Positions 4,472-29,407 of a DNA stretch of 51,506 nucleotides are shown here, one piece after another. Origin of the DNA: an uncultured Verrucomicrobiota bacterium. Its GTDB lineage: Bacteria > Verrucomicrobiota > Kiritimatiellia > RFP12 > UBA3636. How positions within the stretch are numbered: the stretch's first letter is position 1; the number at the start of each line of letters is the position of its first letter. The notes below the pieces were generated by a model. That model searched no databases. It was not told the DNA's origin and worked only from the letters and a program-made list of their open reading frames with translations. The stretch covers positions 1 through 51,506 of the forward strand of contig CAMNCG010000002.1 in the NCBI GenBank assembly GCA_946534105.1, read 5' to 3'. Position numbers and translations under genes: made by a program.

Positions 4472-4484
4472 ATAGGAGATTGGC

Positions 4485-7298: not shown

Positions 7299-7306
7299 CC
7301 CGCACC

Positions 7307-7335: not shown

Positions 7336-7348
7336 CAAAGCGCCCTCC

Positions 7349-7885
7349 ATGAAACCGCCTTCCCACACTCCTTCCGAAACGCCCGTCGCCCTCTACCGGA
7401 CCGAGGACGGCACCGTCCGCGTCTCTGCGCTTGTCCAAGACGAAACCCTGTGGCTCACGCAAGTCGCGATGGCCGTCCTGTTTGACTGTTCGCCCGAAAA
7501 CGTCATCCAGCACCTGAAGAACATATTCGGCGACGGAGAACTCGACGAATCGGCAACTGCTAAGGATTTCTTAGTAGTTCGACAAGAGGGAAAACGCAAG
7601 GTCTCCCGCACGCTCAAGCACTACAACCTCGACGCCATCATCGCCGTCGGCTACCGGGTGAATTCCCGTCGCGCGACGCAATTCCGCATCTGGGCCACGA
7701 AGAGCGTCAACGAGTTCATCGCCTTCCGCCGCTACCAGGTTCTTCCCGACAACGCGCGCGGCAAGGTCGCGCGCGTCGACGCCGAAGACCGCGCCCTCGG
7801 CGAATACGAGATCTTCAACCGCACCCAGCGCATCGACTCCGACTTCGACAAGCTCGTCCGTGCGTCCTCCCACCCCGCCACATAA
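7349..7885 (+). CDS. RhuM-family protein (short form)
   Basis: VALYRTEDGTVRVSALVQDETLWLTQVAMAVLFDCSPENVIQHLKNIFGDGELDESATAKDFLVVRQEGKRKVSRTLKHYNLDAIIAVGYRVNSRRATQFRIWAT matches the RhuM N-terminal pattern I remember (...ETVWLTQ.QMA.LF......I..HI.NIF.EGEL......K.F.......GK.....YNLD.IISVGYRV.S..GT.FR.WAT). I start it at ATG 7349 and do not use the 432-aa ORF-track extension. Confidence 0.8.
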   Translation: MKPPSHTPSETPVALYRTEDGTVRVSALVQDETLWLTQVAMAVLFDCSPENVIQHLKNIFGDGELDESATAKDFLVVRQEGKRKVSRTLKHYNLDAIIAVGYRVNSRRATQFRIWATKSVNEFIAFRRYQVLPDNARGKVARVDAEDRALGEYEIFNRTQRIDSDFDKLVRASSHPAT

Positions 7886-7903
7886 CCCACTAGCCTGCTC
7901 CGC

Positions 7904-7928
7904 GCGGGAGCGGCGAGCCGCCGCCCGC
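7904..7928. repeat. GC-rich REP-like hairpin, copy 3 (imperfect)
   Basis: gcgggagcggcgagccgccgcccgc forms a 5-bp outer stem plus a 4-bp inner stem. It is identical to the copy at 11799-11823. Confidence 0.7.
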
Positions 7929-7930
7929 AT

Positions 7931-8012
7931 TCACTCCTCACCGTGTCCCCCCGCTCCTCCCTCCATCGCCCTTCCCCCGCCGGCGCGGCCGCACCGCCCG
8001 CGGAAGCGCCGG
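7931..8012 (+). repeat. leader repeat, copy 2 (contains the GTG of a 64-codon upstream ORF, 7943..8137)
   Basis: tcactcctcaccgtgtccccccgctcctccctccatcgcccttcccccgccggcgcggccgcaccgcccgcgg is nearly identical to 6121-6200. Confidence 0.75.
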
Positions 8013-8133
8013 TGCCTTTCTCTGAAGTCCGGCTCTCGGTCAGCGCCCACTACGCCAGGCAACCGAAATTCCCCACCCCTAGCCCCTCCCCTCCGCGCGG
8101 GCGTGGCGACGATTCGCCCAAAGGATTCTTAAC

Positions 8134-9540: not shown

Positions 9541-9615
9541 CGAAGATCAAAATGCCCGACAAGTTCAAGCCCCTTCCGCCCCTCGAGCGCGGCGAAGCCG
9601 CCCCGCATGCACTAG

Positions 9616-9692
9616 TCACTCTCACCGTGAACCCCCGCTCCTCCATCCATCGCCCTTCCCCCACGGGCGCGGCCGCGCCGCCCGCCGCGCCG
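9616..9692 (+). repeat. leader repeat, copy 3 (diverged)
   Basis: tcactctcaccgtgaacccccgctcctccatccatcgcccttcccccacgggcgcggccgcgccgcccgcc aligns with the other copies. A GTG at 9627 opens a 29-codon ORF ending at TGA 9714-9716. Confidence 0.65.
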
Positions 9693-9741
9693 CCCGCAGA
9701 CCTCGTCGCTGAATGAAACCGATGAAAACCCGCAAGGTCCA
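9675..9741. repeat. 67-nt conserved intergenic motif, copy 1
   Basis: gcgccgcccgccgcgccgcccgcagacctcgtcgctgaatgaaaccgatgaaaacccgcaaggtcca aligns without gaps to 12843-12909, with about 10 mismatches by eye. Confidence 0.7.
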
Positions 9742-9802
9742 TGTCGAAATCGACCTCTCCGCTCCCGTCACGCCCACCACCCCCTGACCCACGACCCGCC
9801 TC

Positions 9803-11831: not shown

Positions 11832-11928
11832 TTCACTCTTCACTCTTCACTCCTCACCGTGCTCCCCCTATCCTCCCTCCATCGCCCTTCCCCCGCCGGC
11901 GCATCCGTGCCGCCCGCGGCCGCGCCGT
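11832..11928 (+). repeat. leader repeat, copy 4 (with 3 x ttcactc at its 5' edge; contains the GTG start of the core-less Fic paralogue)
   Basis: ttcactcttcactcttcactcctcaccgtgctccccctatcctccctccatcgcccttcccccgccggcgcatccgtgccgcccgcgg aligns with the other copies. Confidence 0.75.
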
Positions 11929-12614
11929 CGCCGCTCTCCGAGTATCTCGTTGCCAAGGAACCCGGCCGCCGCGAGCGCGCGGAGAACTGGCGCGTCGCGA
12001 TCGGGCTGCAGAAGGTCGACGGCCTCGAGGTCTCGCCGTATCTCGTCAAGACCGCCCGGCGCAACATCGAAGGAGAAATATCCGCCGAGGACGCCCGACG
12101 CATTGTCCGACAATACTACGAGGAGAAACCACCCGGGGCCGATCCCGAGGCTCACGGAGAGGCGGACCACACTTCGACGAACATCAACGCCATCCTCGCC
12201 GAGCCCGCGTTCCGCCTCTCGCCCGAGTACTACATCGGCCTCCACCGCCGTATCTTCGCGGGCGTGTTCCCCTTCGCCGGAAAACTCCGCACCGTCAATC
12301 TCACGAAGAAGGAATGGGTGCTCGGCTTGGTCGCACCGCCCGCAAGCGGTGTGAACAAGCCGGATGTCACAAATCATGTCGGGATAAATGTCGGGATAAA
12401 TGTCGGGATAAAACTCTCCCCACAAGAGCAACGCGCGAAGGACCTTCTCGTTGCCGATCCGACACTATCCGCCCCGAAACTCGGCGCTCGGCTGGGCGTC
12501 ACCGGACGCCAGGCCGAGCGCATCGTTTCCTCCCTCAAAACCAAGTCTGGCCTTCGCCGCGTCGGCTCCCGCAAGACCGGCCGCTGGGAGTTCCCGTCCC
12601 ACCCGGCCACCTAG
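11859..12614 (+). CDS. Fic paralogue lacking the Fic catalytic core (VbhA-like N-terminus + repeat linker + wHTH only)
   Basis: The first about 155 codons are almost identical to 6132..6597. After KEWVL the sequence jumps in frame to GLVAP..., which in the full-length copy follows ...AAEL at about 7013. No HPFxxGNxR motif remains, and the reading frame is intact. Confidence 0.75.
   Translation: MLPLSSLHRPSPAGASVPPAAAPSPLSEYLVAKEPGRRERAENWRVAIGLQKVDGLEVSPYLVKTARRNIEGEISAEDARRIVRQYYEEKPPGADPEAHGEADHTSTNINAILAEPAFRLSPEYYIGLHRRIFAGVFPFAGKLRTVNLTKKEWVLGLVAPPASGVNKPDVTNHVGINVGINVGIKLSPQEQRAKDLLVADPTLSAPKLGARLGVTGRQAERIVSSLKTKSGLRRVGSRKTGRWEFPSHPAT
12364..12411 (+). repeat. 4 x 12-nt in-frame tandem repeat (atgtcgggataa)
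   Basis: The units are atgtcacaaatc / atgtcgggataa x3. They encode DVTNHVGINVGINVGI just before the wHTH domain. Confidence 0.9.
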
Positions 12615-16514: not shown

Positions 16515-17561
16515 TCACGGTGCTGCTCCGGAAACAATCGCGAACTGCCCGGCCCGGTCACAATCGCAGGCGAACTGGGGCTGCGCCTTGAGGATGGTCG
16601 TCCAGTCGTTGCCATTCAGCTTCCGCCAATCGCATCGGGCGGCGAACTCCGGTCGCCCTGCGATCACGTTCGCCCAGTCGTGGCGACTGAGCGTTCGTGC
16701 GTCGCATCGGTCCACGAACTGCGGCTGCCAGGCCAGCAATGCGCGCCAATCCTCCTTTCCGATCTTTTCCCAGTCGCATCGGTCGGCGAACTGCGGCTGG
16801 TGCGAAAGAAGGAGCGTCCATTCGGAACCGCCGAATTCGCTCCAGAGGCCGCATCGATCCGCCAGTTCCGGTTGCCGGGCCAGCATCCACGCCCATTGCC
16901 GGCGGTCGAATTCTTCCCACTTGTCGCACCGGCCGGCGAACTGCGGCTGTTTTTGGAGCAGGAAGTGCCAGTCCTGCGCGGACAGTTCCGTCCACTTGTC
17001 GCATCGGTCGGCAAACTGCGGCTGCCTGCACAGGACATTCGCCCAGTTGGACGCATCGAACCGGTTCCGGAAGTTCAGTCGGTCGGCGAACTGCGGCAGG
17101 AACGAAACGACCCGCTCCACATCGAATGCCGAGCACGCGATCGTCTGTCGCGCGAACTTGCTTTCCTTGCGCATCAGCGCCGACAGTAGGCGTCCGAGCC
17201 CGCTTCGTTCCGTCTTTCTCCAGTCGCATCGGTCGGTCAACTGCGGAGAATCCATCAGAAGGCAGCACCAGTTCTCTCCGGAGATCTTCGACCAGTCGCA
17301 TCGGTCCGCGAAACGAAGGTCCTCACGTAAAAGAGACATCCAGTCGTTGCGGGCGAGCCTCGACCAGTTGCACCGGCCGGCGAACTGCGGCTGCCTCCCG
17401 AGAAGCCAGGCCCAGCACACTCCGTCCATCTCGCCCCACTTGTCGCACCGATCGGCGAATCGCGGCTGCGCGGCGAGCAGTTCGGCCCAGTTCCTTCCGG
17501 AAAGCGTCACCCAGCCGAGTCCGGTCGTGGGCCGGATCGTTTTGGATTCAAGTGTTTTCAT
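16515..17561 (-). CDS. tandem-repeat protein, about 12 units of a 24-25-aa W-x2-LL-x2-QPQFA-x-RCDW repeat (family not recognised)
   Basis: Representative units are WAELLAAQPRFADRCDKWGEMDGVC, WAWLLGRQPQFAGRCNWSRLARND, WMSLLREDLRFADRCDWSKISGEN, ... WTTILKAQPQFACDCD. One central unit is degenerate. The ATG at 17561 forms an ATGA overlap with the upstream small ORF. Confidence 0.7.
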   Translation of the reverse strand: MKTLESKTIRPTTGLGWVTLSGRNWAELLAAQPRFADRCDKWGEMDGVCWAWLLGRQPQFAGRCNWSRLARNDWMSLLREDLRFADRCDWSKISGENWCCLLMDSPQLTDRCDWRKTERSGLGRLLSALMRKESKFARQTIACSAFDVERVVSFLPQFADRLNFRNRFDASNWANVLCRQPQFADRCDKWTELSAQDWHFLLQKQPQFAGRCDKWEEFDRRQWAWMLARQPELADRCGLWSEFGGSEWTLLLSHQPQFADRCDWEKIGKEDWRALLAWQPQFVDRCDARTLSRHDWANVIAGRPEFAARCDWRKLNGNDWTTILKAQPQFACDCDRAGQFAIVSGAAP

Positions 17562-17755
17562 CTGCCCCCAGAACGGTTGCGACGGTTTCCGCCGAAAGGA
17601 AGACGCTTGAAAACTGGCCATACTGCCGAACGGTCCCGGCCGCCGCTCACGGCGGTCGTGCGGGTCTTGAGCAGGTTGTCCAAGAAGCGGAGCGCGTGCT
17701 TCGCTTCGAACTGGAGTGTGGGATGGATGGGATGCAGGGAGGTTTTCGTTTCCAT
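17558..17755 (-). CDS. 65-aa ORF whose first ~39 aa are paralogous to the N-terminus of the 28592..29407 protein
   Basis: METKTSLHPIHPTLQFEAKHALRFLDNLLKTRTTAVSGG aligns with MNTAPSIHPIHPTLQFEARHALRFLDNLLRTRTTSVSGG, and the rest is unrelated. Its stop overlaps the next ATG. It may be a duplicated 5' gene fragment rather than a functional protein. Confidence 0.4.
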   Translation of the reverse strand: METKTSLHPIHPTLQFEAKHALRFLDNLLKTRTTAVSGGRDRSAVWPVFKRLPFGGNRRNRSGGR

Positions 17756-17828
17756 GTCGTGGAGTTCTCTGTTTGGGGGTTCTCTGTTTCCGAGTTGTGC
17801 CGGCGGATTCACCGCCGCAACCGCTCAT

Positions 17829-17844
17829 CGCAATCCCCATGCCA
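17829..17844 (-). promoter_or_regulatory. sigma-54 (-24/-12) promoter candidate
   Basis: The minus strand reads TGGCATGGGGATTGCG against the consensus TGGCACG-N4-TTGCW. It lies 74 nt upstream of ATG 17755. Confidence 0.65.
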
Positions 17845-17854
17845 ACAGGAAAAC

Positions 17855-17881
17855 GGGCCGGAAACGCATCGTTTCCGGCCC
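17855..17881 (-). terminator. hairpin GGGCCGGAAACG-N3-CGTTTCCGGCCC followed by TTTTCC on the minus strand
   Basis: A 12-bp perfect stem lies 38 nt downstream of the stop of the 17919..18620 gene. The T-run merges into the sigma-54 promoter. Confidence 0.65.
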
Positions 17882-17918
17882 AGACCTGTTCAGAATTTAT
17901 GCAACTGGTCAAAAAAAA

Positions 17919-18620
17919 TCATCTCACAAAATGCCGCGCCACATCATTCCAGCACAGCCCGAGTTCGTTCGTCCGGTAGGGATCGGCGCCCATGTCTACA
18001 AGGACGCGCGCCGTCTTTGGACAGGCGAAGCCCCCCTCCCCATTCTGGTCGTCCCGATAGGTCAGATACCACAAAATTCCGTTTCCACGAACGTCGATGA
18101 AGTCGCGTATGTCAGGAACATCGAATCTTTTCCGCAGAATACTGGCGAGAACGTCGTCCTTGACGCGCACCAAGAACGCAATCAGATATTGCCGGTTTAA
18201 AATCCCCACTGGTTCGGGAACGGGAACGATGCCGTCGAGTTCGTGTCCGGATAGGGTTGGCAGCAAATCTTCCCATCCGGGAAGCCATTGTCGGATCTTC
18301 CACCGGCGCATGGCCACAGCATCCGCGAATGCCCGTTGGACAACGGGGTTTTCCATGACATCCCCCTGCAGTAGCGCGTCCACGTTCCACCAGAAATGCG
18401 AATAGCGGACGACGCGCCACAGCGCCGCCTTTGCCGCATGCGGCAAAGGCGACGTGATTGCGTGGGCGAAAAACGAGAGCCGTTCCCCTTCCGGCAATCT
18501 ACGCAAGGCCGGCTTTAACGCACGCTCTATGCTACGCTCGTCGGGACTGGACTCAATGTCATGGAGGAAAGGGCGGATGTCAAGTGGCATATCCGGAAGT
18601 CGGGCATCGGAGGTTTTCAT
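17919..18620 (-). CDS. hypothetical protein with a possible C-terminal ankyrin-like repeat
   Basis: I recognise no family. RGNGILWYLTY...TARVLVDMGADPYRTNELGLCWNDV loosely fits the ANK consensus (G.T.LH.A......V..LL..GAD.N..D..G.T). Confidence 0.5.
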   Translation of the reverse strand: MKTSDARLPDMPLDIRPFLHDIESSPDERSIERALKPALRRLPEGERLSFFAHAITSPLPHAAKAALWRVVRYSHFWWNVDALLQGDVMENPVVQRAFADAVAMRRWKIRQWLPGWEDLLPTLSGHELDGIVPVPEPVGILNRQYLIAFLVRVKDDVLASILRKRFDVPDIRDFIDVRGNGILWYLTYRDDQNGEGGFACPKTARVLVDMGADPYRTNELGLCWNDVARHFVR

Positions 18621-18669: not shown

Positions 18670-18680
18670 AGGCGAATAAT

Positions 18681-18706
18681 GGGCCGGAAACTGGCGGTTC
18701 CGGCCC
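18681..18706 (-). terminator. hairpin GGGCCGGAA-N8-TTCCGGCCC (same family as 17855 and 18992)
   Basis: A 9-bp stem, 30 nt downstream of the stop of the 18736..18927 ORF. The following tract on the minus strand (cattattcg) is only weakly T-rich. Confidence 0.45.
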
Positions 18707-18735
18707 CGCTATTGTATCAATTGTTGATCATCTGC

Positions 18736-18927
18736 TCAAAAACCGCGCATTTGGAGGGCGGCCGGATCGACCGGCCCGTCCGGACCGTGTAGGAGAAACG
18801 CCCCGGCCAGAGCGAGCGCCGCGCAGAAGGCCCCTTCGGCAATGACGAAGATCTGTCCCGTCCGCTGCCGCCTCGCCGGCGGCGTTTCGGGATTCGGTGA
18901 TGGAGGTTGTTCGGTTGGTGTTTGCAT
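18736..18927 (-). CDS. 63-aa hypothetical small membrane protein
   Basis: The ATG is preceded by cgAAAGGAatcc. The product MQTPTEQPPSPNPETPPARRQRTGQIFVIAEGAFCAALALAGAFLLHG... has one hydrophobic helix. It sits between a sigma-54-like promoter and a hairpin. Confidence 0.35.
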   Translation of the reverse strand: MQTPTEQPPSPNPETPPARRQRTGQIFVIAEGAFCAALALAGAFLLHGPDGPVDPAALQMRGF

Positions 18928-18980: not shown

Positions 18981-18991
18981 ACACGCAAAAG

Positions 18992-19015
18992 GGCCGGAAA
19001 CGAGCGTTTCCGGCC
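18992..19015 (-). terminator. hairpin GGCCGGAAACG-AG-CGTTTCCGGCC followed by CTTTTG on the minus strand
   Basis: An 11-bp perfect stem about 170 nt downstream of the McrC-like stop. It is the third member of the hairpin-plus-promoter cassette. Confidence 0.6.
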
Positions 19016-19183: not shown

Positions 19184-20659
19184 TCACTTGGAAGAAATAA
19201 CTTCGAAAAGCTGATCAACCAATCGGGTCACCCATGGCAGGAACTGGCGGCCGAAATCATCGTCAGAAAGCGTTTTCTCCCCCTCCTTCACGTCAGAGTC
19301 GGGAACAACAAGGAAGGCGACATTGAACCGCATTGGATATCCCTGTTGATGGAGTGGCTCGGAGAGAACGACACGCTGGATGTCAGTTTCATTTCGAAGG
19401 CGGCGCCAGCGCGATTCAGAAATGGGATAGATGAATCCGCAGGCGCTGATTCGTCTTGCGTTTCCATATTGCCCTATGTATGTGTGAAGTTGGAATGCAT
19501 CCTCCCGCGACACACCATGCTTTTCATCGTAATACTTGTATTTGGCGTCAAACACGGCAACATGGTCGCCCAGATCGAAAACAAGATCGGGCATGAGTTG
19601 TCGCGAATACCGACCGACAAGCGGGCATGTTGGTATTCGGAAATAATCGTGCTCTTTGCGAACAAGCTTGATTCCCCTTCGGACAAAGCGTTTTCGGAGA
19701 AAGTATTCGTAGAGCATCGAAACATCAAACAAAATGGCGTCAGCCTTTTCCTTGACTGAAAAATCGCTTCCGAAATCCCTCAGAATCGCCTTGGAAAGGT
19801 CGATCAACTCGTTATAGTCCGCGTAAAACGCATTTTTGAAATGCTCAACATTGAGAAGGTTCTTTCGTTTACTGGCCTTTTCCCCGGTCGCCTGCATGAA
19901 TGACTGGCAAATCGGGGCCGTCCTAGAGCAAAATACACTTGTGGACGGTCTACGGCTCAATACATCCCACGCGGTCGCGAACAATTCCGCGGCGGGATTG
20001 TCGTAACTCAGCTCCCGGTATGTGCATCGGGCGCGGCCTCTTTGCGGATAACCATAGTAGTCGATGACATCGACATTTCCTCGAACACCTGCAAGAGATT
20101 CGGTCTTCTGGCGGTAGCATTTCGGCATTCCGAGTCGGAATGCATGGAGCATTTTGACATTCCAGTAATACCCAAGCAGCCAATCGTATCCTTCGCTTGA
20201 CTGAGACGTTCCTCCTTGATCGCGTAGACTGGCAAAGCCGTCCGCGTCCGCAACGATGTGCCGCAGGAAAGAATCGCCGAACCGGGATCCTATCGTCACG
20301 GTTCCAGCAAGCGAGCCGTCGCCCAGACGGCACGAAACGCTTCCTATCAAGTTGCCCGTCGATAGGGAAAAACCGCCGTCACGCCGAACCACCACCGACA
20401 AGAAGGGGTCTTGGGTGTCATGCGAATAGCAATCTTCGCGGAGAACGTGGACTCCGCCGCCCTTTCCTTTCTCGATTCCCTCGCGGACATCCGAGGACAA
20501 CGACGCCCATGTCGATGGACTCTTCCATACCTTGACTCCTCCCCAAATGGAAAGGGGCTGCCGTCCATCCGTCCTGGTATCGACGAGGTCGTTTTCCCCT
20601 TCTGGAGAAAAGACATACTCGTGATTGTCGACGAGCTTGAAGTTTATCGGCTTGGGCAT
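19184..20659 (-). CDS. mcrC: McrC-like PD-(D/E)xK nuclease subunit of a type IV (McrBC-type) restriction system
   Basis: Lies directly downstream (1-nt gap) of the McrB-like gene. The C-terminal ...PDLVFDLGDHVAVFDAKYKYY... fits the D-x(n)-(D/E)xK nuclease motif typical of McrC. Confidence 0.7.
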   Translation of the reverse strand: MPKPINFKLVDNHEYVFSPEGENDLVDTRTDGRQPLSIWGGVKVWKSPSTWASLSSDVREGIEKGKGGGVHVLREDCYSHDTQDPFLSVVVRRDGGFSLSTGNLIGSVSCRLGDGSLAGTVTIGSRFGDSFLRHIVADADGFASLRDQGGTSQSSEGYDWLLGYYWNVKMLHAFRLGMPKCYRQKTESLAGVRGNVDVIDYYGYPQRGRARCTYRELSYDNPAAELFATAWDVLSRRPSTSVFCSRTAPICQSFMQATGEKASKRKNLLNVEHFKNAFYADYNELIDLSKAILRDFGSDFSVKEKADAILFDVSMLYEYFLRKRFVRRGIKLVRKEHDYFRIPTCPLVGRYSRQLMPDLVFDLGDHVAVFDAKYKYYDEKHGVSREDAFQLHTYIGQYGNARRISACGFIYPISESRWRRLRNETDIQRVVLSEPLHQQGYPMRFNVAFLVVPDSDVKEGEKTLSDDDFGRQFLPWVTRLVDQLFEVISSK

Positions 20660-20660
20660 G

Positions 20661-22475
20661 TCAATCTACGCCGAATGTCTTGGCGAACTGATCCACGGGA
20701 TTCTCGGACTCCTTGTTGAACGAACCCCTGAGGTACTCTTCGAGAAGTGGCCGTAGCGCGTCATCCCAGATTGCCTGTCGAAGATTCTTAACCTTCCATT
20801 CGAGCTGGGCTCCGTCATATTTCAATCCCATCAGGTAGGCATGGCCGATGCGATAGTCCGAGCCAAGCGACGGATGGTTCTTGATGGCCTCGTTCAGCTT
20901 GCTCCAATTATCCACAAGCTTTTGGCGGGCATCCTCCTGAATCCAATTCTGGTGCTGGGCCAGGTAATTGGTCAACACATTGGCATTGGGTTCGACATGC
21001 TGCCATGCGAACCTACGGCGCAACGCGAAATCGAAGCTCTCCACGCTTCTGTCAATCGTGTTCATCGTGCCGATGATATAGACATTTGTCGGGACGAAAA
21101 ACAGTGCCTCGCCATCCTTCAAGCGAAGCATCGCGTCGTCCTCCTCGTTGAGTTCGGCGTACTGCGTGCTCACGGCGCCTTGGGCTCCCCTGTATTCAAG
21201 GCAGAACATCAATTCGCCGAAGGTGCGGGAAAGCTCGGCTCGGTTGATTTCGTCGATCAGCACGAAATAGGGCGGCAGCATGGCGGACAGTTTGCATTTG
21301 GGGAATCGTTCCCCTGCGTCGAAAACGACCTTCCAATAGTGATCGTTGTTGTCTGTTTTCGCCAGGAGCTTTTCCTTTGCCGAGTCGTCCGACATCAGTT
21401 TTTCGACGGGTTCGTCAAGATAGGAACGATTCACGTTGCCTTCTGGATGAATGCCAAGTTCCGCGAGGTCGATTTCCCATCTCCCCGCCTTTCGGCAGAA
21501 TTCCTTGAACTTTCCGTTTTTCAAGCGAAGTTCGGTCCTTGTCACCTCTGGGTCTTTGGAGCCTTTGCCTTTGATCTGGACTGGGCGAAGACCTTCAATG
21601 AAATCCTCGTAGCCGAACGAAGGATGGAATTGAAGCTGGAGATAATGGGAATTGAAATCCTCTCCCTTTCGGCAGCTGCTCATTGCCTTCCACACAAGAA
21701 ATGCGATTTGCATTTCCCGTCTTGAAATAAAGGTCTTCCCGGTGCCCGGAGGCCCGTATTTGACAACCTGCTTTTTCAACTGGAATGGAGAACAGAAGCA
21801 CTCGTGGAGGTGCCATACGAAGATATTGCGGCGGGCATTGTCGACCTCGATTCTTTCCCCCGGATCAAACTGCAGCGCCGCTTTCAACTGCTCCGTCAAA
21901 TGCAGATTTCTCGAGTGCCAATCCTTATTTTGCCCTTCGGTCGGACTGTCGATGATTTCACAGTTAATCAATGTCTTGTACAGAGAATCGAATCTTCCAT
22001 TGTCGACGACCACCGAAAGGTCCGGGTTGCAAGCGCTGGCGAACCGGTTAAACCGTAGGTAGGGCTTTCTTGCCGTTGTCTTCTCTTCCCCTGCCTGGGC
22101 GGGCTCAGCATTGATGGCGTCTATGACTTGACAACCGGCGGAAACCAATCTCTCATAACCTTGTTGGGTCGGCGCCTTCATGTAATCCGTGGCCGCAGCG
22201 AGGAAGTCTCCGTCGGCAACAATCCTCTCGTAATTCCGGTGGCTGAGCATGGCCATACCCGTGTTGGAAATCCCATTTCCGGATTCGCTGTTCTCCTGAA
22301 TGAGCCACTCCAGCAGGTCTTTGTCGGAGGTTGCAGAAAGAGGAGTTTGAGCCAATGTCGCACGCCGCTCGATAACTCTGGCCACAGTCTTCTGGTACTC
22401 GTTGTACCACCACTGGTCCTGGTCGCGATTGTCCCAGTAATACTTGTACAGTTCTTTGATCAAGTCAACGTTCAT
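20661..22475 (-). CDS. mcrB: McrB-like AAA+ GTPase subunit with a ~250-aa unrecognised N-terminal domain
   Basis: Three motifs form the McrB-family AAA+ signature as I remember it: Walker A VKYGPPGTGKTF, Walker B / McrB box FVLIDEINRAELSRTFGELMFCLEYRG, and YIIGTMNTIDRSVESFDFALRRRFAW. Confidence 0.85.
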   Translation of the reverse strand: MNVDLIKELYKYYWDNRDQDQWWYNEYQKTVARVIERRATLAQTPLSATSDKDLLEWLIQENSESGNGISNTGMAMLSHRNYERIVADGDFLAAATDYMKAPTQQGYERLVSAGCQVIDAINAEPAQAGEEKTTARKPYLRFNRFASACNPDLSVVVDNGRFDSLYKTLINCEIIDSPTEGQNKDWHSRNLHLTEQLKAALQFDPGERIEVDNARRNIFVWHLHECFCSPFQLKKQVVKYGPPGTGKTFISRREMQIAFLVWKAMSSCRKGEDFNSHYLQLQFHPSFGYEDFIEGLRPVQIKGKGSKDPEVTRTELRLKNGKFKEFCRKAGRWEIDLAELGIHPEGNVNRSYLDEPVEKLMSDDSAKEKLLAKTDNNDHYWKVVFDAGERFPKCKLSAMLPPYFVLIDEINRAELSRTFGELMFCLEYRGAQGAVSTQYAELNEEDDAMLRLKDGEALFFVPTNVYIIGTMNTIDRSVESFDFALRRRFAWQHVEPNANVLTNYLAQHQNWIQEDARQKLVDNWSKLNEAIKNHPSLGSDYRIGHAYLMGLKYDGAQLEWKVKNLRQAIWDDALRPLLEEYLRGSFNKESENPVDQFAKTFGVD

Positions 22476-22528: not shown

Positions 22529-23065
22529 TCATGGAGATTCCGTTTTCATCAGGTTGTCGTACACCTGCTTGTCCCGCTCCGAGAAGCAGCAGAAGATCAC
22601 TTCCATTTCGGGGCGGGCGGAGTCCCGCCCCGAAAGGAAAGCCCGCATGGTGTCGACCGAGATTCTCGCGGCGTCTTCGATGGGATAGCCGTAGACGCCG
22701 GTGGAGATGCAGGGGAAGGCGATGGATTTGCAGCCGTTCTCCGCCGCGAGGGCGAGGGAGTTGCGGTAGCAGGCGGCGAGGAGCTCGGGCTCGCCGTGGC
22801 GGCCGTCGCGGTAGACGGGGCCAACGGTGTGGATGACGAACTTCGCGGGGAGCTTGAAGCCGGGCGTGATGCGCGCTTCGCCGGTCGGGCAGCGGACGCC
22901 CGACCGGACTTCCGGGACCTTGAGGCAGGCTTCGAAAAGCTCGGGGCCGGCGGCGCGGTGGATCGCGCCGTCCACCCCGCCGCCCCCGAACATGCGCTGG
23001 TTGGCGGCGTTGACGATGGCGTCGACGGAAAGGGTCGTGATGTCGGCTTGGGCGATTCGAATCAT
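22529..23065 (-). CDS. macrodomain protein (YmdB / O-acetyl-ADP-ribose deacetylase-like)
   Basis: MIRIAQADITTLSVDAIVNAANQRMFGGGGVDGAIHRAAGPEL...FVIHTVGPVY...IAFPCISTGVYGYP shows canonical Macro motifs (NAAN, GGG.DGAIH, ISTG.YG.P). There is an ATGA overlap with the upstream exonuclease gene. Confidence 0.9.
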   Translation of the reverse strand: MIRIAQADITTLSVDAIVNAANQRMFGGGGVDGAIHRAAGPELFEACLKVPEVRSGVRCPTGEARITPGFKLPAKFVIHTVGPVYRDGRHGEPELLAACYRNSLALAAENGCKSIAFPCISTGVYGYPIEDAARISVDTMRAFLSGRDSARPEMEVIFCCFSERDKQVYDNLMKTESP

Positions 23066-23625
23066 GGTTGGGGCTCCAGCAGTTTGAACAGCGCGCCCGC
23101 GCAGGCGAGGGCGTCGTCGAGGGCGTCGTGGCTGTTGACGCCGTCCACGGCGAGCGCGTCGACGAGCGTCGCGAGCTTGTGGTCGGGAAGGTCGGGGCGG
23201 AGGCGGCGGGAGAGCGCGAGCGTGTCGCACGTGTCGATGCCGTCGCACGCATAGCAGAGGTCGAATTTGGCGCACTCCTGGCGGAGCATCCGCAGGTCGA
23301 AAACCGCGTTGTGGGCGACGAGGAGCGCTCCATCGCCGACAAATTCGAAGAACCGCCGCATCGCCTCCTCCGGAGCGATGCCGTGCTCGCGGAGGAAGTC
23401 GTCGGACAGACCGTGCACCGCCTCCGCCCACGGATTCACAGGGCAGGTCGGGCGGACGTAGAGGGCCAGCGTCCGTGACAGCGCCCCGCCGACGTATTCC
23501 GCGGCGGCGATCTGGCAGATCTCGTCGCACGCCGTCCCGCCCGTCGTCTCCGTGTCGAAGACGACCACGCGGCCCGCGTGGACGCGTGAGACGAGAAGTG
23601 GCAGCGATGCGGCGTCGATTCTCAT
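23062..23625 (-). CDS. DEDDh 3'-5' exonuclease (DnaQ/epsilon-like, stand-alone)
   Basis: Exo I is VVFDTETTG, Exo II is LVAHNAVFDLRML and Exo III is HDALDDALACA. Confidence 0.85.
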   Translation of the reverse strand: MRIDAASLPLLVSRVHAGRVVVFDTETTGGTACDEICQIAAAEYVGGALSRTLALYVRPTCPVNPWAEAVHGLSDDFLREHGIAPEEAMRRFFEFVGDGALLVAHNAVFDLRMLRQECAKFDLCYACDGIDTCDTLALSRRLRPDLPDHKLATLVDALAVDGVNSHDALDDALACAGALFKLLEPQP

Positions 23626-23640
23626 GTCACGACTGAAACG

Positions 23641-25875
23641 CTAGTTTCCCCAGAGCCAGTTTTCGAGATCTTCCGCAATTGCCTTTCGCCGGGCGATGGC
23701 GTCGTCCTTCGTCCATGCCGCGACCTTGGCGCCGAGATCGCGGATGGAGCGGTATTCGCTTGCAGCGTAGGCTACCGGCTTTTTTGTCCGCTGATTGCGG
23801 ATGCTCCTGTTGAGGCCGCTTTCCAGCATGGCGAGGTTGCCGATCCTGTTGAGTTCGTCGCCCCATTCGCGCCAGACCTGTTCGAAGTCCTTTTCGTCGG
23901 TAAACGACTGGACATGCTCGATGTCGAAGCCCGTCTCGAACAGCCGCCGGAACAGGGCGTCGTCTTTTTCGCCCGAGGCGCGGTATTCGACAAGGCGGCA
24001 GAGGAGGTTCTTCCACTTGACGTTCCACGCAACCGGATTGTCAAGGGACACCCGGAACAGCTGCGCCAGGTTTTGCCCGCCGAATGTCCAGCGCTTCGCG
24101 CACCATTCCATGACGGAAGCCCCTGAACCGAACTCGCCGCTCCACATGGCCTTCAGCAGGTCGAGGAGAAGCGCACGGCCCTGATACACGTGCTTCGCAT
24201 AGTAGAGGCTCGGCGGGACAAGGGCCTTCACCAGGCCCTCCGTGAACGGGCGGATGGCTCCCGCCGCCGAAACGCCGGCGAGGAGGGCGAGCACGGGGAA
24301 GTCGGCTGCGTAACCGTAGCGTGTTTCCCAGAACAGGCGTTGGAAAATCCGGAGGTCGGCATCCCGTGCGCAGGCCTCAAGATAGGTGACATGGGCGTCT
24401 GCAACGGCGGCCAGATCCTCAATGGCAAGGACGCCCTTGAACGCCTTGAAGTCGTCCCATGCGTGCACGTCGAGAAGCGTGTCGAACAGTTCGCAGAAGA
24501 AGCGCTCCTGCGACATGGAGAAGGTCGCGGCGTTCATGTCGTACTTAGCGACCAACTCGCGCTGGTATGTCGCGAGAACCGCCGACATCGGAAGCGTCGT
24601 CCCGTTGCAGGGGTGGCGGTTGTATTCGGCGACACGCTCGTAAATCTCAGAGATGCGGTCAAAGGCATCCTCGCCGTCGCCCATTCTCTGCCGGTATTCG
24701 TAGAAGCGGACCTTGAACAAATCCTCGCTGCCGAGGTCAAGCCCCGACGAATTGATCGTGTCGAAAATCTCAAGCGTCTTCGACAGCCCCGCGCGGGTTT
24801 CGATGATCACGATACGGACGCTTTTTTCCAGAAAGGCCCGCATCCGGCCCATGTAGTCCGCAAGCGCCTCGTCCGGAACGGGGGCGGCATCGTCCCCGCC
24901 ATCGTCTCGCGAGGCCAATTCGCGGAGAAGGGAAACGATGATCCGCGCATTGGCGAAGTACGGATTGGACCGGAGCGCAGAGGTCTCGTCGCCGACGGCC
25001 GGATTCAGCTCCATCAGCGCCAGGCCGTCCAGTGCCTCGTCCAAATCGTTCTGCGCGGCCCGCTTGTTGACGGACGTCCGGAAGTTCCGCTTCGCGTAGT
25101 CGAGCGTCCACCCCGTTCCGGAATCGCAGCCGAACCTCTCAAGAATGGAGAGCAGGAGCAAAAGCGTTGTCATGCGCTGCTGGCCGTCGATCACGTCGTA
25201 GGAGCGGATGCTTCCGTCCGGATTGAGCGGAATCGGCTGCGAGAGCTGCATGGTCCCGAGGAAGACCGGGTCCTTGCAGGAAAGGGCCTGGTGCAGATCC
25301 TCCAGCAGACGCCGGATTTGCGGCTCGCCCCACGAATACGGACGCTGGAAGATGGGAACATGGTACTTCGCGCCCGGATGGAACAGCCGCCCCGGATCGG
25401 ACTCGTCGCAAAGCGAAACCACCCGCGTCGAAATGGCAAACGGCCCGGGTCCGTCGGTCCGGCCGTTTTCGCCCCACCACTTCTGGACTTTTTCGGCGGC
25501 GAGTGCGGCGCGGCAGAAGGCGCGCCGGGAATCGATGCCCCAATACTCGCCGCGCTCGCGCTCGCCAAGGAGGACGAGGCGAGAGCGGCAGACGACAGCG
25601 TCGGCGTCCACCAGGAACTCGTCGGCATCTCGATTGCGGAACGGAATACCGGCGGCCTCCCATTCCGTGAACTTGCCAAGGGCCTCGCCGATCGCGACAG
25701 GGACGCTCCCGTCGGAGACGATGAACAGGTCGCCGCGTTCCACGGCGTTCCAGTCGCCTCGATTCCCGCCGTACGCGTTTCCGAAGAACACGCATCCATA
25801 GTCGAAGAAGAGGTCCAGGACGCTCTCCCCCATGTTCCCCCAGCGGGAACCGACCTTCCAGACGTTCTTGTCCAT
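23641..25875 (-). CDS. GmrSD-like DUF262 + DUF1524 (His-Me finger) protein with ~160-aa extra N-terminal domain
   Basis: DUF262 motifs are HVPIFQRPYSW and YDVIDGQQRMTTLLLLL. The C-terminal ...FDIEHVQSF...GNLAMLESGLNRSIRN resembles the DUF1524 HNH-like end. Confidence 0.8.
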   Translation of the reverse strand: MDKNVWKVGSRWGNMGESVLDLFFDYGCVFFGNAYGGNRGDWNAVERGDLFIVSDGSVPVAIGEALGKFTEWEAAGIPFRNRDADEFLVDADAVVCRSRLVLLGERERGEYWGIDSRRAFCRAALAAEKVQKWWGENGRTDGPGPFAISTRVVSLCDESDPGRLFHPGAKYHVPIFQRPYSWGEPQIRRLLEDLHQALSCKDPVFLGTMQLSQPIPLNPDGSIRSYDVIDGQQRMTTLLLLLSILERFGCDSGTGWTLDYAKRNFRTSVNKRAAQNDLDEALDGLALMELNPAVGDETSALRSNPYFANARIIVSLLRELASRDDGGDDAAPVPDEALADYMGRMRAFLEKSVRIVIIETRAGLSKTLEIFDTINSSGLDLGSEDLFKVRFYEYRQRMGDGEDAFDRISEIYERVAEYNRHPCNGTTLPMSAVLATYQRELVAKYDMNAATFSMSQERFFCELFDTLLDVHAWDDFKAFKGVLAIEDLAAVADAHVTYLEACARDADLRIFQRLFWETRYGYAADFPVLALLAGVSAAGAIRPFTEGLVKALVPPSLYYAKHVYQGRALLLDLLKAMWSGEFGSGASVMEWCAKRWTFGGQNLAQLFRVSLDNPVAWNVKWKNLLCRLVEYRASGEKDDALFRRLFETGFDIEHVQSFTDEKDFEQVWREWGDELNRIGNLAMLESGLNRSIRNQRTKKPVAYAASEYRSIRDLGAKVAAWTKDDAIARRKAIAEDLENWLWGN

Positions 25876-25902
25876 TTCCCAGGCCCTTTCAGTTGGTAGC
25901 GA

Positions 25903-26256
25903 CTACCGCGTGGGGCTGTGGTGCCCGCCGCGCTCGGGGTTGCGCGAACAGGAATTGATTACAAGCGACCGCAGGTCTCTGTACTCACGTCCGCAGAACT
26001 TGCAAACAAAAGGCCCATTGGGATTGCCCTCGAACGGCTCATGATTTCTCCCATTGGGATTGCTGGAGCAGGAATTGATCACCAGCGAGCGCAGATCACG
26101 ATATGCCCGTCCACAGTGGACGCAGAGAAAGGGGCCGTTCTTGTCGCCTTCAAACAATTCGTGGTTGCGACCATTGGGGTTGGCAGAGCAAGAATTAATC
26201 AGTAATGACCGTGCATCACGGTATTCTCGTCCGCAGTATTTGCACAGTTCGCTCAT
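25903..26256 (-). CDS. 117-aa protein made of three 40-aa C-x2-C-x14-C-x8-H repeats (zinc-ribbon/knuckle-like, family not recognised)
   Basis: AAGGAGA lies 7 nt upstream of the ATG. The repeats are CKYCGREYRDARSLLINSCSANPNGRNHELFEGDKNGPFL, CVHCGRAYRDLRSLVINSCSSNPNGRNHEPFEGNPNGPFV and CKFCGREYRDLRSLVINSCSRNPERGGHHSPTR. Confidence 0.7.
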   Translation of the reverse strand: MSELCKYCGREYRDARSLLINSCSANPNGRNHELFEGDKNGPFLCVHCGRAYRDLRSLVINSCSSNPNGRNHEPFEGNPNGPFVCKFCGREYRDLRSLVINSCSRNPERGGHHSPTR

Positions 26257-26284
26257 GGTGGTTCTCCTTGGTTGGGGTTGTGGG

Positions 26285-28234
26285 TTACGGGTTGACCGGA
26301 ACGCGGTACTTGAGCAGCGAGGCGAAGGCGTTCGCCACGGCGGCCAGGCTGCCGCGAAGCTTTTCTGAAAAGGCGTCGGAAACGAGTTCGTCGTGGTCCT
26401 TGAAGGGAACCGTGATGTTCCACCAGATGTTCTCCGGACGATGCCCGATGTTCTTGTCAACGGCGGCGCTGACGGCGAAAGGAGCCCATGCGGCGCAGTA
26501 GGCGGCTTCCGCCGCCGCAAGGTCGGTCTGGATGTCCGAAGCTGCGAAATCGATGCGAAAGCGCTCCTTCGGCGTGTTCCCCCAAAATTCGCCCCAGATT
26601 TTGAGCTGGAACGAGGAACCATCGTGGAAGACGCGGAAGGTCAGAAGGCCAAGGTAATTCCGGTTCTCGGCAATTCCGGAGAGCGGAGACATCCAAAACG
26701 TGGCCGCCAGATTGCTCACGACCTTCGACTGCTCCGATGTGATGGCGCCGGCTCCGTCGAAATCCGCCCCGAAACCCTTTTTCAGCCCTTTCATGCCAAG
26801 TGTTTTGTCGCGAAGGTCTTTCAGGTATTGCGATTTGCTGAAGTTCTCCGGCGTCGCCGCCTGAGCGGGTTCGCTCTTGACGTTCGTGACGGCCGAGAGG
26901 CGCATGAGCCATTCAACCGTTTCGCCGACGGTTTCATTCTGGTTCGCCGCCGCAACGCGTGTCTTTATGCGGTTCAGGATACGCGAGATGTTCAGCGCAC
27001 GCGCTTTGAGGAACGTGTCACGACTGCAGAAACGGAACAGCATCTGCTCCCATGGCTCGTCGAATTCGGTCATCGCCTTGAGCTTCTCCGCCTCACCTGT
27101 CGCGAGTGCCGGGAGGTCTTCCCGTTGCGCGAAGGCTTCGCCCCAGTTTGGAAAGTTCGGCTCGGCGAGAAGCGCGTCATAGACCTTCGGGTACTGAATC
27201 TGGAGGCTCACGAGCGCGAACAGAACATCCTTCCACTTCGCGAAATCGGCGTCGTCCTGCTTGTCCGTTGTCCGGGCGATGACCAGTTTGATGAGAGAGA
27301 GGTAGTTGATGAGGCGCTTGAGCGAGCGCGGGTTCGTTCCGACGGAATCAAGCGCGTAGGCGGTGATCGCTTCGCAGAGCGACTTATCGCCCTTCTCCTT
27401 CGCGTCGAGATAGCCAATCTCAACGAGCGAGCCCATCAGGAAATCGTCAATCGTGTAGTTGGCGACGGGCATGGAGAAGGGAAGCTGGATGATCTTGTCG
27501 AAGAAGGAGCGGAACTCGCGCTCGTTGGCCGCCGTCATTTCGCCGAACTTCGGCTTGAGGCCCTTCACGACGACGCCGTAGTCAATGGCGAGGACGAAGA
27601 TGCAGTGCGGGATGTCGAAGATGTTCTTCAGCAATTCGAGAATCTGGACGGCCACGGGCGGGTCGATGCGGTCGAGGTCGTCGATGAAGAAGAGAAAGCC
27701 GTGCTTGCCCGGCGCCTTCTGCAATGCGTCATTGACCAACTTGGCGAGTTTGTCCTTGAGATCCTCGACGCCTGACTTCGTCACATCGTTGCCGTTGGCA
27801 CTCCACTCCTTTACGTTCTTTTCGAGATCGACACCGCTATACTTCTTGAAGATGTCCGACACGACCCCGCCGCCCACGCGGGCGATTCTGCAGAGCAGTC
27901 TGGTTCTCTCCTCGTCGCTGGTCTTGGCGATGGAGGATACCTGTCCGATGATGCCGGAGAGGATGTTGAGGATCGCTTCATCCGGGTTCGACATCAGGGC
28001 GTATTGCCATGTGTTGATCCATACGCCGAGATAGGGGGCTTCGCCAGCATCAACGAGCCGGGCTTTGAGCGCGTTCATGAGGGATGTCTTGCCGCTGCCC
28101 CACTCGCCCTGGAGGGCGATGGTGAGGGGCGACTGGGCGTTTTGGATGAACTCCACAAGCGCGTCGGCGTAAGCGCCCATGTGGAGCCGATCTTCATCCG
28201 CCTTGGCGGGTTGGTCAACGACATTGGTGTTCAT
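26285..28234 (-). CDS. KAP-family P-loop NTPase (no obvious TM insert)
   Basis: The N-terminal DRLHMGAYADALVEFI...PLTIALQGEWGSGKTSLMNAL (Walker A) and HGFLFFIDDLDRIDP (Walker B) form the KAP NTPase signature. Confidence 0.8.
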   Translation of the reverse strand: MNTNVVDQPAKADEDRLHMGAYADALVEFIQNAQSPLTIALQGEWGSGKTSLMNALKARLVDAGEAPYLGVWINTWQYALMSNPDEAILNILSGIIGQVSSIAKTSDEERTRLLCRIARVGGGVVSDIFKKYSGVDLEKNVKEWSANGNDVTKSGVEDLKDKLAKLVNDALQKAPGKHGFLFFIDDLDRIDPPVAVQILELLKNIFDIPHCIFVLAIDYGVVVKGLKPKFGEMTAANEREFRSFFDKIIQLPFSMPVANYTIDDFLMGSLVEIGYLDAKEKGDKSLCEAITAYALDSVGTNPRSLKRLINYLSLIKLVIARTTDKQDDADFAKWKDVLFALVSLQIQYPKVYDALLAEPNFPNWGEAFAQREDLPALATGEAEKLKAMTEFDEPWEQMLFRFCSRDTFLKARALNISRILNRIKTRVAAANQNETVGETVEWLMRLSAVTNVKSEPAQAATPENFSKSQYLKDLRDKTLGMKGLKKGFGADFDGAGAITSEQSKVVSNLAATFWMSPLSGIAENRNYLGLLTFRVFHDGSSFQLKIWGEFWGNTPKERFRIDFAASDIQTDLAAAEAAYCAAWAPFAVSAAVDKNIGHRPENIWWNITVPFKDHDELVSDAFSEKLRGSLAAVANAFASLLKYRVPVNP

Positions 28235-28591: not shown

Positions 28592-29407
28592 TCAGCCGGC
28601 GAAAAGGTCGAGGCCGTCGAAGAGGTCGTCGTCGGAGCCGTGCGAGTTTTCCGCCCCGAGACCGCGCGCCTTGATTCCGGGAATCGCCACGCGGCCTTCG
28701 AGGAATTCAAGCGCATTGCGGGTGGGCGTGAGATTGTCGTCCAGCAAGCCGCAGGCGACGAGCTTCGCGTCGTTGCGGACGAGCGGGAGAAGGTCGTCCA
28801 CGCCGCAGCCGAGATACGCGGCGGCCTCTTCGAGACGGACGAGGTTGGACGCGCCGCAGCATCGTCCGTCCAGATCGTATTCGAGCAGGTCGTGGGTTTC
28901 GCAGAGCCCGACCAGAAAGACGTCCATCTCCCGCCTCGAAAGGCGGTAGCGGCGCGCGAGCGCCGCGCACCGGGCGGCCACTCCGCCGTCCGTCGCGGGA
29001 GCGAGTCCCGCGACTGCCTTCGCGAGGCGGGAAACGGCGGCGCGGACGCACGCGCGGACCTCGGGCTGCGGGCAGGACCAGAGATCGTCGAGAAAAGTGC
29101 AGGGTTCGGCGCCGAAGTCGACCTCGAACGTCCCGTGCCTGACGGCGCTTCGCCCGGATTCGGTGGTGCATTCGAGCGTGTCTCCGTTCCAGCGGAATTC
29201 GTAGGGGCCGATCGCCCCCGTCAGGGACGCGAAGTCCGCCTTGAGGTCGCGGCCGGACGCGAAGACGGCAACGGCGCCGAAGAGGTCGGAACCGCCGCTC
29301 ACGGAAGTCGTCCGCGTGCGGAGGAGATTGTCGAGGAAGCGCAGCGCGTGCCTGGCTTCGAACTGGAGCGTAGGATGGATTGGATGGATGGAGGGGGCGG
29401 TGTTCAT
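28592..29407 (-). CDS. hypothetical protein (271 aa), sigma-54-dependent by promoter prediction
   Basis: ATG at 29407. The N-terminal 39 aa are shared with the 17558..17755 ORF, and the remainder is unrecognised. A hairpin ccgtgcaag-N11-cttgcacgg (28505-28533) lies downstream. Confidence 0.55.
   Translation of the reverse strand: MNTAPSIHPIHPTLQFEARHALRFLDNLLRTRTTSVSGGSDLFGAVAVFASGRDLKADFASLTGAIGPYEFRWNGDTLECTTESGRSAVRHGTFEVDFGAEPCTFLDDLWSCPQPEVRACVRAAVSRLAKAVAGLAPATDGGVAARCAALARRYRLSRREMDVFLVGLCETHDLLEYDLDGRCCGASNLVRLEEAAAYLGCGVDDLLPLVRNDAKLVACGLLDDNLTPTRNALEFLEGRVAIPGIKARGLGAENSHGSDDDLFDGLDLFAG

Follow-up and report, generated by a model that had tools for sequence, protein, structure and literature searches.

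Enzymes of the GmrSD/BrxU/SspE family are typically single polypeptides borne on genomic islands. Rare fusions of an EVE domain to a GmrSD enzyme have been mentioned (Bell et al. 2020, PMC7641849), and KAP NTPases fused to C-terminal regions without any known domain are single-gene antiphage defences (PMC13552941; PLoS Biol 2026). The two kinds of protein, each known as a stand-alone defence, have not been reported together, and no paper that connects KAP NTPases with GmrSD/DUF262 came up in literature searches. The subject of this analysis is a stretch of 51,506 nucleotides (nt) from an uncultured Verrucomicrobiota bacterium of the class Kiritimatiellia (contig CAMNCG010000002.1; hereafter the window), in which genes for a KAP NTPase, a triple zinc-finger protein, a GmrSD-family nuclease, an exonuclease and a macrodomain (macro) protein follow one another on the minus strand, next to an McrBC pair (Table 1). 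This block is likely a mosaic of three units within a recombination hot spot of a rumen/gut Kiritimatiellae chromosome, namely a KAP gene with a cassette of zinc-finger and reader-GmrSD genes, an exonuclease-macro pair, and McrBC. The literature searches turned up no earlier account of this KAP-zinc finger-GmrSD neighbourhood, nor one of the zinc-finger family.

The five open reading frames (ORFs) are separated, from KAP to macro, by 28, 27 and 15 nt and then share a 4-nt overlap; the start of McrB lies 53 nt beyond macro, and McrB and McrC are spaced by 1 nt. The original prediction, made from the letters alone, had given these ORFs and their spacings exactly, as the rechecked coordinates confirm. 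All the motifs that it quoted were located in the KAP, GmrSD, exonuclease and macro proteins, and each of its domain calls is backed by Pfam above the curated cut-off. It had considered that the operon might be one defence system, with the NTPase as sensor, the nuclease as effector and an added exonuclease/ADP-ribose arm, or else two to three stacked modules. A single five-gene system would be in keeping with the tight spacing on one strand, with the fact that the scan listed no terminator-like site in the intergenic gaps from KAP through McrC, that is, before 18992, and with the position of the exonuclease directly after the GmrSD gene in the window and in loci L050/51 and L132/134 (L numbers denote loci from other genomes). 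However, gene content, gene order, base composition and protein family all speak against it.

The exonuclease matches Pfam RNase_T (PF00929, E 1.4e-29), with FDTETTG at 23, HNAVFD at 105 and HDALDDA at 166, and the macro protein matches Pfam Macro (E 5.4e-49), with GGGGVDGAIH at 27 and ISTGVYGYP at 120. When GTDB species genomes were scanned with the exonuclease, 16 related loci (185 kb; 58-85% identity) were obtained, the titled ones being Kiritimatiellae or 'Verrucomicrobia' metagenome-assembled genomes, many of them from rumen samples. Their neighbouring genes (sigma-54 activator, MGMT, nucleoside hydrolase) are 73-92% identical to those of the window, which indicates that the regions are orthologous. 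Home-made hidden Markov models run over these loci found a DUF262 gene in one, a zinc finger in one and KAP in none. Exonuclease and macro are adjacent, with no cargo, in L008 (RelB-PIN-Macro-Exo-hydrolase), L012 (Macro-Exo) and L015 (Exo-Macro), and none of these three contigs has a relative of KAP, the zinc finger or DUF262. Conversely, the other three genes occur without the pair in L046-49, and in L045 the exonuclease gene lies on one side of the trio and macro on the other, further genes being placed between. In L003, L009, L010, L011 and L019 the two genes bracket variable cargo; macro is duplicated in L003 and L019, and the exonuclease in L003.

The halves of the block also differ in composition. 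The content of guanine plus cytosine (GC) is 58.8% in KAP, 54.8% in the zinc-finger gene and 62.4% in GmrSD, compared with 68.8% in the exonuclease and 66.3% in macro; the latter two values, like the third-codon-position GC of the exonuclease (0.88), resemble those of host core genes. The by-eye remark that the first three genes are richer in AT was thus accurate, and the argument drawn from it, that modules were stacked here, is the one that the comparative data favour. With 235.3 bits (cut-off 200), the macro protein passes NF001664, the equivalog model for O-acetyl-ADP-ribose deacetylase, a housekeeping enzyme; as both genes also behave like genes of the lineage, the proposed ADP-ribose/exonuclease arm is unsupported. 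Taken together, a single five-gene system is very improbable. Exonuclease and macro appear to be ordinary lineage genes that anchor the hot spot and stand outside the recurrent trio, and their conserved sequence would supply the flanks between which cargo is exchanged.

When co-occurrence of the genes in the same order was followed across genomes, the five-gene set did not recur; the sub-set of KAP, zinc finger and GmrSD-family nuclease was found repeatedly. In L045 the order is exonuclease, 320, 126, KAP, zinc finger, 85aa, GmrSD and, farther on, macro (83% identity for GmrSD, 73% for KAP). L046-49 carry 212, KAP, 78aa, GmrSD and zinc finger in a sigma-70/kinase context (GmrSD 76%, KAP 51%), the exonuclease and macro genes being absent from the 14-kb contig. 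The order in L132/134 is KAP, 108aa, a two-repeat zinc finger, GmrSD and exonuclease (GmrSD 57%, KAP 62%), and L005 has KAP (61%), a different GmrSD of 841 amino acids (aa), 75, 104 and zinc finger. Three further loci were reached from KAP: L139-141, where KAP is followed by two DUF262 genes and the zinc finger is absent; L142, with KAP, 78aa, zinc finger, GmrSD590 and DUF262-748; and L143, where the same KAP as in L142 precedes zinc finger, PDDEXK_4, DUF262-513 and GmrSD660. KAP is absent from L050/51, which read PDDEXK_3, zinc finger, GmrSD (96%) and exonuclease.

In all eight distinct KAP loci, KAP comes first, a gap of 12-96 nt separates it from the next gene, and GmrSD-family genes lie at most three genes downstream on the same strand; the zinc finger is present in seven. 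The trio recurs in at least four genomic contexts. GmrSD-family genes were present in 3/3 of the loci sampled through KAP, as against 1/16 in the lineage background (Fisher p = 0.004). As a control, 80 generic DUF262 loci (727 kb) contained no KAP of the window subfamily and no zinc-finger gene; they came from a metagenome scan with the GmrSD alignment, which had picked generic DUF262 patterns, and among the matches listed only three loci, all short, were of the family. That order, strand and adjacency stay the same from one context to the next speaks for shared transcription and co-selection at the least. The neighbourhood appears to be restricted to this lineage.

Several of these loci hold further genes. 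A small accessory family of ~78 aa lies between or after the KAP and GmrSD genes (L046 9596-9832, L142 8988-9224, L005 3893-4120), and another of ~100-108 aa occupies similar positions (L134 2322-2648, L139 12199-12498); neither family has a Pfam-precomputed or PHROGs match, and neither was found in the window. In L001, four DUF262-family genes, together with one full and one truncated zinc-finger gene, are packed into 10 kb (656-9802). Type IV-like genes are unusually dense in islands of this lineage.

Recombination joints define the exchangeable unit more closely. The window and L050 are 95.5% identical from 26296, 12 nt inside the KAP 3' end, to ~23004, 60 nt inside macro, so that the block common to the window and L050/L051 spans the zinc finger, GmrSD, the exonuclease and 60 nt at the start of macro. 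Upstream of this block L050 has a PDDEXK_3 gene in place of KAP, and an insertion splits its macro gene. A natural cassette swap is seen between L142 (6728-14738) and L143 (1-8633), whose sequences agree at 99.6% identity through KAP and for another 18 nt after its stop; from there on they carry unrelated zinc-finger and GmrSD cassettes of 5.1 and 5.7 kb, followed by an 88%-identical segment. These two recent joints at the KAP stop codon indicate that the zinc-finger gene moves as part of the GmrSD cassette and apart from KAP. The exchangeable unit thus appears to run from the zinc-finger gene, as its first gene, onward with the GmrSD gene or genes, and KAP appears as its conserved left-hand neighbour. 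Such swaps offer a natural experiment on the exchange of defence modules.

A wider rearrangement is evident against the closest relative, L019 (UBA6982), in which the flanks have ~92-93% DNA identity to the window. Between the conserved flanks YgjV/PLD and sigma-54 activator/MGMT, everything from ~16.6 to 29.7 kb has been rearranged. There is a cargo slot on either side of the exonuclease-macro pair; the one below macro holds McrBC in the window and a zinc finger-245aa-GmrSD727-167aa array in L003. The 167-aa gene, which belongs to a set of related 167/180-aa genes, follows GmrSD-family genes in L003 and L007, and its remnant beside McrC in the window (Table 1) is apparently a relic of earlier cargo.

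The GmrSD-family protein combines two recognised domains with an additional one. GmrSD_N/DUF262 (PF03235, E 4.8e-26, above cut-off) covers residues 168-391, with FQRPYSW at 176 and IDGQQR at 229, and the GmrSD_C/DUF1524 His-Me finger (PF07510, E 4.7e-8, 33.5 bits against a cut-off of 23) covers residues 622-735, with DIEH at residue 651 and the family-invariant N680 and N689 present. The PADLOC models matched are HEC-06, Orf5 and SspE, and among solved structures DUF262 proteins and SspE come nearest, with similarity confined to ~80 residues of DUF262. The first 165 residues form an extension shared by ~80 full-length clusters of the family, including those of Akkermansia and Luteolibacter, in which W6, W12, F23 and F30 are nearly invariant; this domain also occurs in further architectures. 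Its AlphaFold2 model has a mean predicted local distance difference test (pLDDT) score of 90.7. Foldseek searches of the PDB returned EVE/YTH-type readers as top hits, with marginal though consistent scores (best E 7e-4, probability 1.00, template-modelling scores 0.44-0.51); they are led by VcaM4I (6yex, E 7e-4) and include MJECL36 (2p5d), Rpa0253 (2gbs), PSPTO5229, YTH (4u8t), THYN1 (5j3e) and the N-domain of Thermococcus gammatolerans McrB (6p0f). PHROGs contained nothing for the reader-like domain.

The extension probably adopts an EVE/YTH-like fold of the PUA superfamily and is a predicted reader of modified bases. Readers of this kind bind the flipped base in an aromatic pocket, for which the four nearly invariant Trp and Phe residues would be candidates. 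Its resemblance to such readers suggests that the enzyme is probably a Type IV, that is, modification-dependent, nuclease, and the reader-GmrSD fusion is a new member of the fusion type already noted. From family knowledge and fold similarity, a mechanism can be proposed in which the GmrSD protein would be the DNA-cutting effector: the EVE/YTH-like N-domain would bind a flipped modified base in incoming DNA, the DUF262 (ParB-like NTPase) domain would power loading or clamping onto the DNA, and the DUF1524 His-Me finger would do the cutting. In Akkermansia (L135/L136, 5843-10166), a homologue with 39% identity is preceded by a 687-aa ankyrin-repeat protein and a helix-turn-helix (HTH) gene, not by KAP and the zinc finger.

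The zinc-finger protein is small and basic (isoelectric point 8.8) and carries three C-x2-C-x14-C-x8-H repeats, each with three Cys and one His, at residues 5-32, 45-72 and 85-113. Its AlphaFold2 model is compact (mean pLDDT 91.6, predicted template-modelling score 0.81), with one short strand and one short helix per repeat. The three repeats had been recognised in the original prediction under the label 'zinc ribbon'; the ligand set and the strand-helix repeat make 'zinc finger' the better name. The family comprises 16 clusters among 5.8 billion proteins, with conserved Cys/His ligands. Fold searches gave no significant match (best E 1.6 in the PDB and 0.25 in BFVD), there was no match in PADLOC or NCBIfam, and PHROGs yielded sub-threshold hits to families of unknown function. 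The summed zf-C2H2 score of 31.9 bits exceeds the cut-off of 25.2, with no single stretch passing; the ligands are Cys3-His, and the CTCF hit is at chance level (E 1.6). An AAGGAG ribosome-binding site lies inside the 28-nt gap upstream of the gene. A longer ORF of 239 aa was considered and rejected, as homologues align only from the MSE..CKYCG start and the upstream extensions are not conserved; this start, conserved in every homologue, shows that the 117-aa call is right.

The protein would most likely be a nucleic-acid-binding regulator or adaptor for its GmrSD cassette. A narrower proposal, which can be held only tentatively, is that it is, like defence regulators of the BrxR/CapW type, a transcription factor acting on the cassette that follows, and not a working part of the enzyme. 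Its size and charge would suit this role, its gene is first or near-first in nine of the 13 variable cassettes and travels with them, and the gene also stands ahead of non-GmrSD cargo in L006 and L009. Yet in L046 it lies 3' of GmrSD, in L005 it is remote from the start of the cassette, and its model has no DNA-binding fold match in the PDB or BFVD.

KAP is recognised by Pfam KAP_NTPase (PF07693, E 8.9e-37), with the NTPase domain at residues 21-316, Walker A (GEWGSGKTS) at residue 43 and Walker B (FFIDDLDR) at 182. Its PADLOC matches, to PDC-S20 (5.8e-31), PifA (1.8e-29) and QatA (1.2e-20), involve the N-terminal half only; the alignment to PDC-S20, for which a literature search found no paper mentioning the candidate, joins profile positions 17-358 of 464 to residues 13-357 of 649 and leaves both C-terminal halves unaligned. 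The C-terminal region of ~330 residues is conserved within the subfamily. It has no Pfam match, and both a profile search and a plain sequence search of the PDB reached the P-loop only; no toxin or nuclease domain was detectable in KAP by Pfam or the PDB profile search. A crude hydropathy scan (19-residue Kyte-Doolittle windows) showed no transmembrane segment, the sole high window (maximum 1.84, from residue 205) being the hydrophobic core just past Walker B.

The KAP subfamily comprises more than 120 clusters at ≥55% identity, far exceeding the zinc-finger family, and its two taxon-named clusters are both from Kiritimatiellae; with a limit of E ≤ 1e-20, KAP has roughly 4,600 homologues. Viral contigs contained no zinc-finger relative and a single distant KAP with no GmrSD nearby, plasmids gave only remote KAP matches (~30% identity), and PHROGs matched KAP to one family of unknown function. 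Membership in QatABCD was considered and discarded, because the NF041923 score is 80.8 bits against a QatA cut-off of 600 and the neighbours are zinc-finger and GmrSD genes. KAP may be viewed as a separate conserved upstream gene, most likely an additional NTP-dependent arm of the kind seen in the single-gene KAP defences published in 2026; it would be co-transcribed and co-selected with whichever GmrSD cassette stands downstream.

How closely the three proteins depend on each other is a further question, and several observations weigh against a tight functional unit. The count of eight KAP loci is biased, since five were reached through GmrSD or zinc-finger queries, and the informative loci come from one lineage and mostly from short metagenome contigs, so they are not independent samples. 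GmrSD subtypes sharing <30% identity adjoin nearly identical KAP genes, which argues against specific protein contacts; this KAP-constant, GmrSD-variable pattern is equally expected of independent, co-selected defence genes. Each component also occurs without at least one of the others. A 48%-identical KAP lies on an integrase-bearing contig of 38% GC with GmrSD absent nearby, L006 and L009 have the zinc-finger gene but no DUF262 gene, and full-length GmrSD homologues without KAP or zinc finger exist in L018 (52% identity) and Akkermansia L135 (39%), so the nuclease is probably autonomous. On the side of the reader domain, the fold match is marginal, and residues 1-165 have no Pfam match even at E 0.05, the EVE model included.

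It is quite possible, if somewhat short of probable, that KAP, the zinc finger and GmrSD are functionally independent: a stand-alone KAP defence and a stand-alone Type IV enzyme would have become neighbours only through cargo exchange at a few hot spots of this lineage, with KAP as a conserved flank. Free subtype mixing, stand-alone occurrences and the published stand-alone KAP defences favour such independent, complementary genes. KAP proteins with unknown C-terminal regions protect alone (PMC13552941), the joints fall exactly at the KAP stop, and identical KAP genes precede divergent cassettes. Moreover, two zinc-finger types, several GmrSD subtypes and KAP variants are mixed and matched freely, with no consistent sign of co-divergence. 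Independence has more difficulty with the same-strand GmrSD-family genes downstream of KAP in every locus across at least four contexts, with the rarity of such genes in the lineage background, and with the short gaps after KAP, which suggest at least shared transcription.

An obligate three-component system, in which a KAP sensor or guard and a zinc-finger adaptor would be combinable with interchangeable modification-reading nuclease cassettes, is conceivable but on balance doubtful. Looser links, such as a regulatory role of the zinc finger, have somewhat higher odds than functional coupling of all three. PrrC provides a precedent for a guard, as it guards EcoprrI restriction and gives a second response when restriction is blocked. 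By analogy, KAP might guard the GmrSD nuclease or sense a phage inhibitor of such nucleases, and so mount a second response upon blocked restriction. An NTPase gene constantly beside restriction genes of varying subtype would suit this role, and the conserved C-terminal domain of KAP could be the effector; nevertheless, the lack of a detectable toxin or nuclease domain and the great diversity of partner subtypes make a guard function improbable.

The McrBC pair completes the block. McrB matches Pfam AAA_5 (PF07728) and McrC matches McrBC (PF10117, E 6.1e-24), both above cut-off; the NCBIfam McrB and McrC models match below their E. coli equivalog cut-offs. Both genes have 52% GC, and no McrBC homologue was found in the 16 related loci. 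The pair appears to be a separate, independent and more recent Type IV acquisition of foreign composition, and its abutment on the other five genes, which had been pointed out as a feature of the candidate system, is coincidental.

Table 1. Coordinates of the features of the block and its borders in the window
Feature	Coordinates	Strand	Evidence
Sixth gene, 271 aa, 357 nt upstream of KAP	28592..29407	minus	ORF list
KAP-family P-loop NTPase, 649 aa	26285..28234	minus	ORF list and Pfam
Recombination joint at KAP 3' end	26285..26296	not assigned	Comparison with L050/L051
Triple zinc-finger protein, 117 aa	25903..26256	minus	ORF list, repeats, homologue alignment
GmrSD-family nuclease, 744 aa	23641..25875	minus	Pfam
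N-terminal extension of GmrSD protein, residues 1-165	25381..25875	minus	AlphaFold2 and Foldseek
DEDDh 3'-5' exonuclease, 187 aa	23062..23625	minus	Pfam RNase_T
YmdB-type macrodomain protein, 178 aa	22529..23065	minus	Pfam Macro, NCBIfam NF001664
McrB (20661-22475) and McrC (19184-20659), Type IV restriction module	19184..22475	minus	Pfam
Terminator-like hairpin, first 3' of the seven-gene run; 10-bp stem and T-rich tail	18992..19015	minus	Terminator scan
Remnant of 167-aa gene, now beside McrC	18745..18927	minus	tblastn, 70% identity over 61 residues

The borders of the block show several further features. The 271-aa gene upstream of KAP has no Pfam, NCBIfam or PHROGs match; it was considered as a cassette member and rejected, since it is present at 89% DNA identity in L019, which is without KAP, and is thus a lineage gene. 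A 103-nt direct repeat (82% identity; 17640-17742 and 29292-29394, 11.65 kb apart) brackets nearly the whole variable block. Its left copy duplicates part of the 5' end of the 271-aa gene, and in L019 the sequences flanking both copies are contiguous. A GC-rich hairpin, GGGCCGGAAACG..CGTTTCCGGCCC, occurs three times (17854-17882, 18680-18708 and 18988-19015), the third copy being the terminator-like site after McrC; two of the three sit in a larger similar element of ~80 nt. The three copies may be elements of the repetitive extragenic palindrome (REP) type or shared terminators at cassette ends. In other genomes, a 383-aa gene (L003 2881-4032; homologues in L006, L009, L011, L019 and L023) lies just upstream of the sigma-54 activator and has a weak match to IS200-like Y1 transposases (E 0.0019). 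The window lacks it and has the 271-aa gene and KAP on that side. The possibility of a prophage or integrative element that brought its own integrase was also considered and set aside, as there is no integrase or phage gene among the Pfam-scanned ORFs of the window, and an Rfam search of the window found no RNA family.

Island material makes up most of the first 30 kb of the window. An island of 40% GC (1493-6023) lies within a genome of 65-70% GC; its ORF at 4485-6023 on the plus strand is a homologue of the abortive-infection protein AbiH (Pfam E 1.9e-28), and the four ORFs before it (1493-4471) have no Pfam match. Pfam further identified defence- or toxin-like genes at 603-1379, 6132-7298, 8134-9540, 9883-11781 and 11859-12614. 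The families represented there are a DUF1016/YhcG PDDEXK nuclease, a Fic/DOC protein with a VbhA-like segment and an HTH, a protein with Schlafen AlbA_2 and HATPase_c_4 domains, a PRiA4_ORF3-like protein and a second VbhA-like ORF. Additionally, eight to nine copies of a 72/75-nt periodic repeat (16601-17490) lie inside overlapping ORFs on both strands (16515-17912 minus, 16697-18100 plus), without a Pfam match. They probably encode a repeat protein of 24-25-residue units, and either strand may be the coding one.

These results have implications beyond the locus itself. Close packing of genes on one strand is not enough to make them an operon-sized system; here, lineage genes are interleaved with cargo. 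KAP, the zinc finger and GmrSD constitute a testable three-gene candidate in a poorly studied phylum, and the zinc-finger protein belongs to a new small family with a confident model and without a structural relative. If the trio were obligate, it would represent a plug-in architecture for Type IV restriction, seen so far in Kiritimatiellae only, and the zinc-finger protein would be a new fold family with a defined role.

Comparison with known systems places the components as follows. The N-terminal NTPase domain of the window KAP matches the models of QatA and PifA; nevertheless, no QatB-, QatC- or QatD-type families are found among the Pfam-scanned neighbours, and the PifA alignment is confined to the NTPase half. 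Like the EF_KAP class, it consists of a P-loop domain and a region of ~330 residues without a known domain; its best PADLOC hit is the candidate PDC-S20, aligned over the N-terminal half only. Many KAP proteins have transmembrane helices placed within or ahead of the NTPase domain; EF_KAP has two (PMC13552941) and none is seen in the window KAP, and in all eight loci examined the window-type KAP has GmrSD-family genes downstream. The McrBC pair has the AAA_5 GTPase and McrC nuclease domains of that system and, unlike the recurrent trio, is a separate module of 52% GC that is missing from the related loci.

The nuclease shares with EVE/YTH-nuclease fusions (VcaM4I EVE-HNH and EVE/YTH-McrB) a predicted PUA-superfamily N-domain and the order of reader followed by nuclease. 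It differs in having no Pfam EVE/YTH match and in a nuclease part that is of the GmrSD type rather than a plain HNH or PD-(D/E)XK domain. Like GmrSD, BrxU and SspE, it has the DUF262 and DUF1524 domains, with the motifs QRPYSW and DGQQR and, at the C-terminus, an H..N..N His-Me finger. The window protein departs from these enzymes in its 165-residue N-terminal reader-like domain and in its surroundings, where KAP NTPase and triple zinc-finger genes regularly precede an enzyme of this type, with no BREX or Ssp context.

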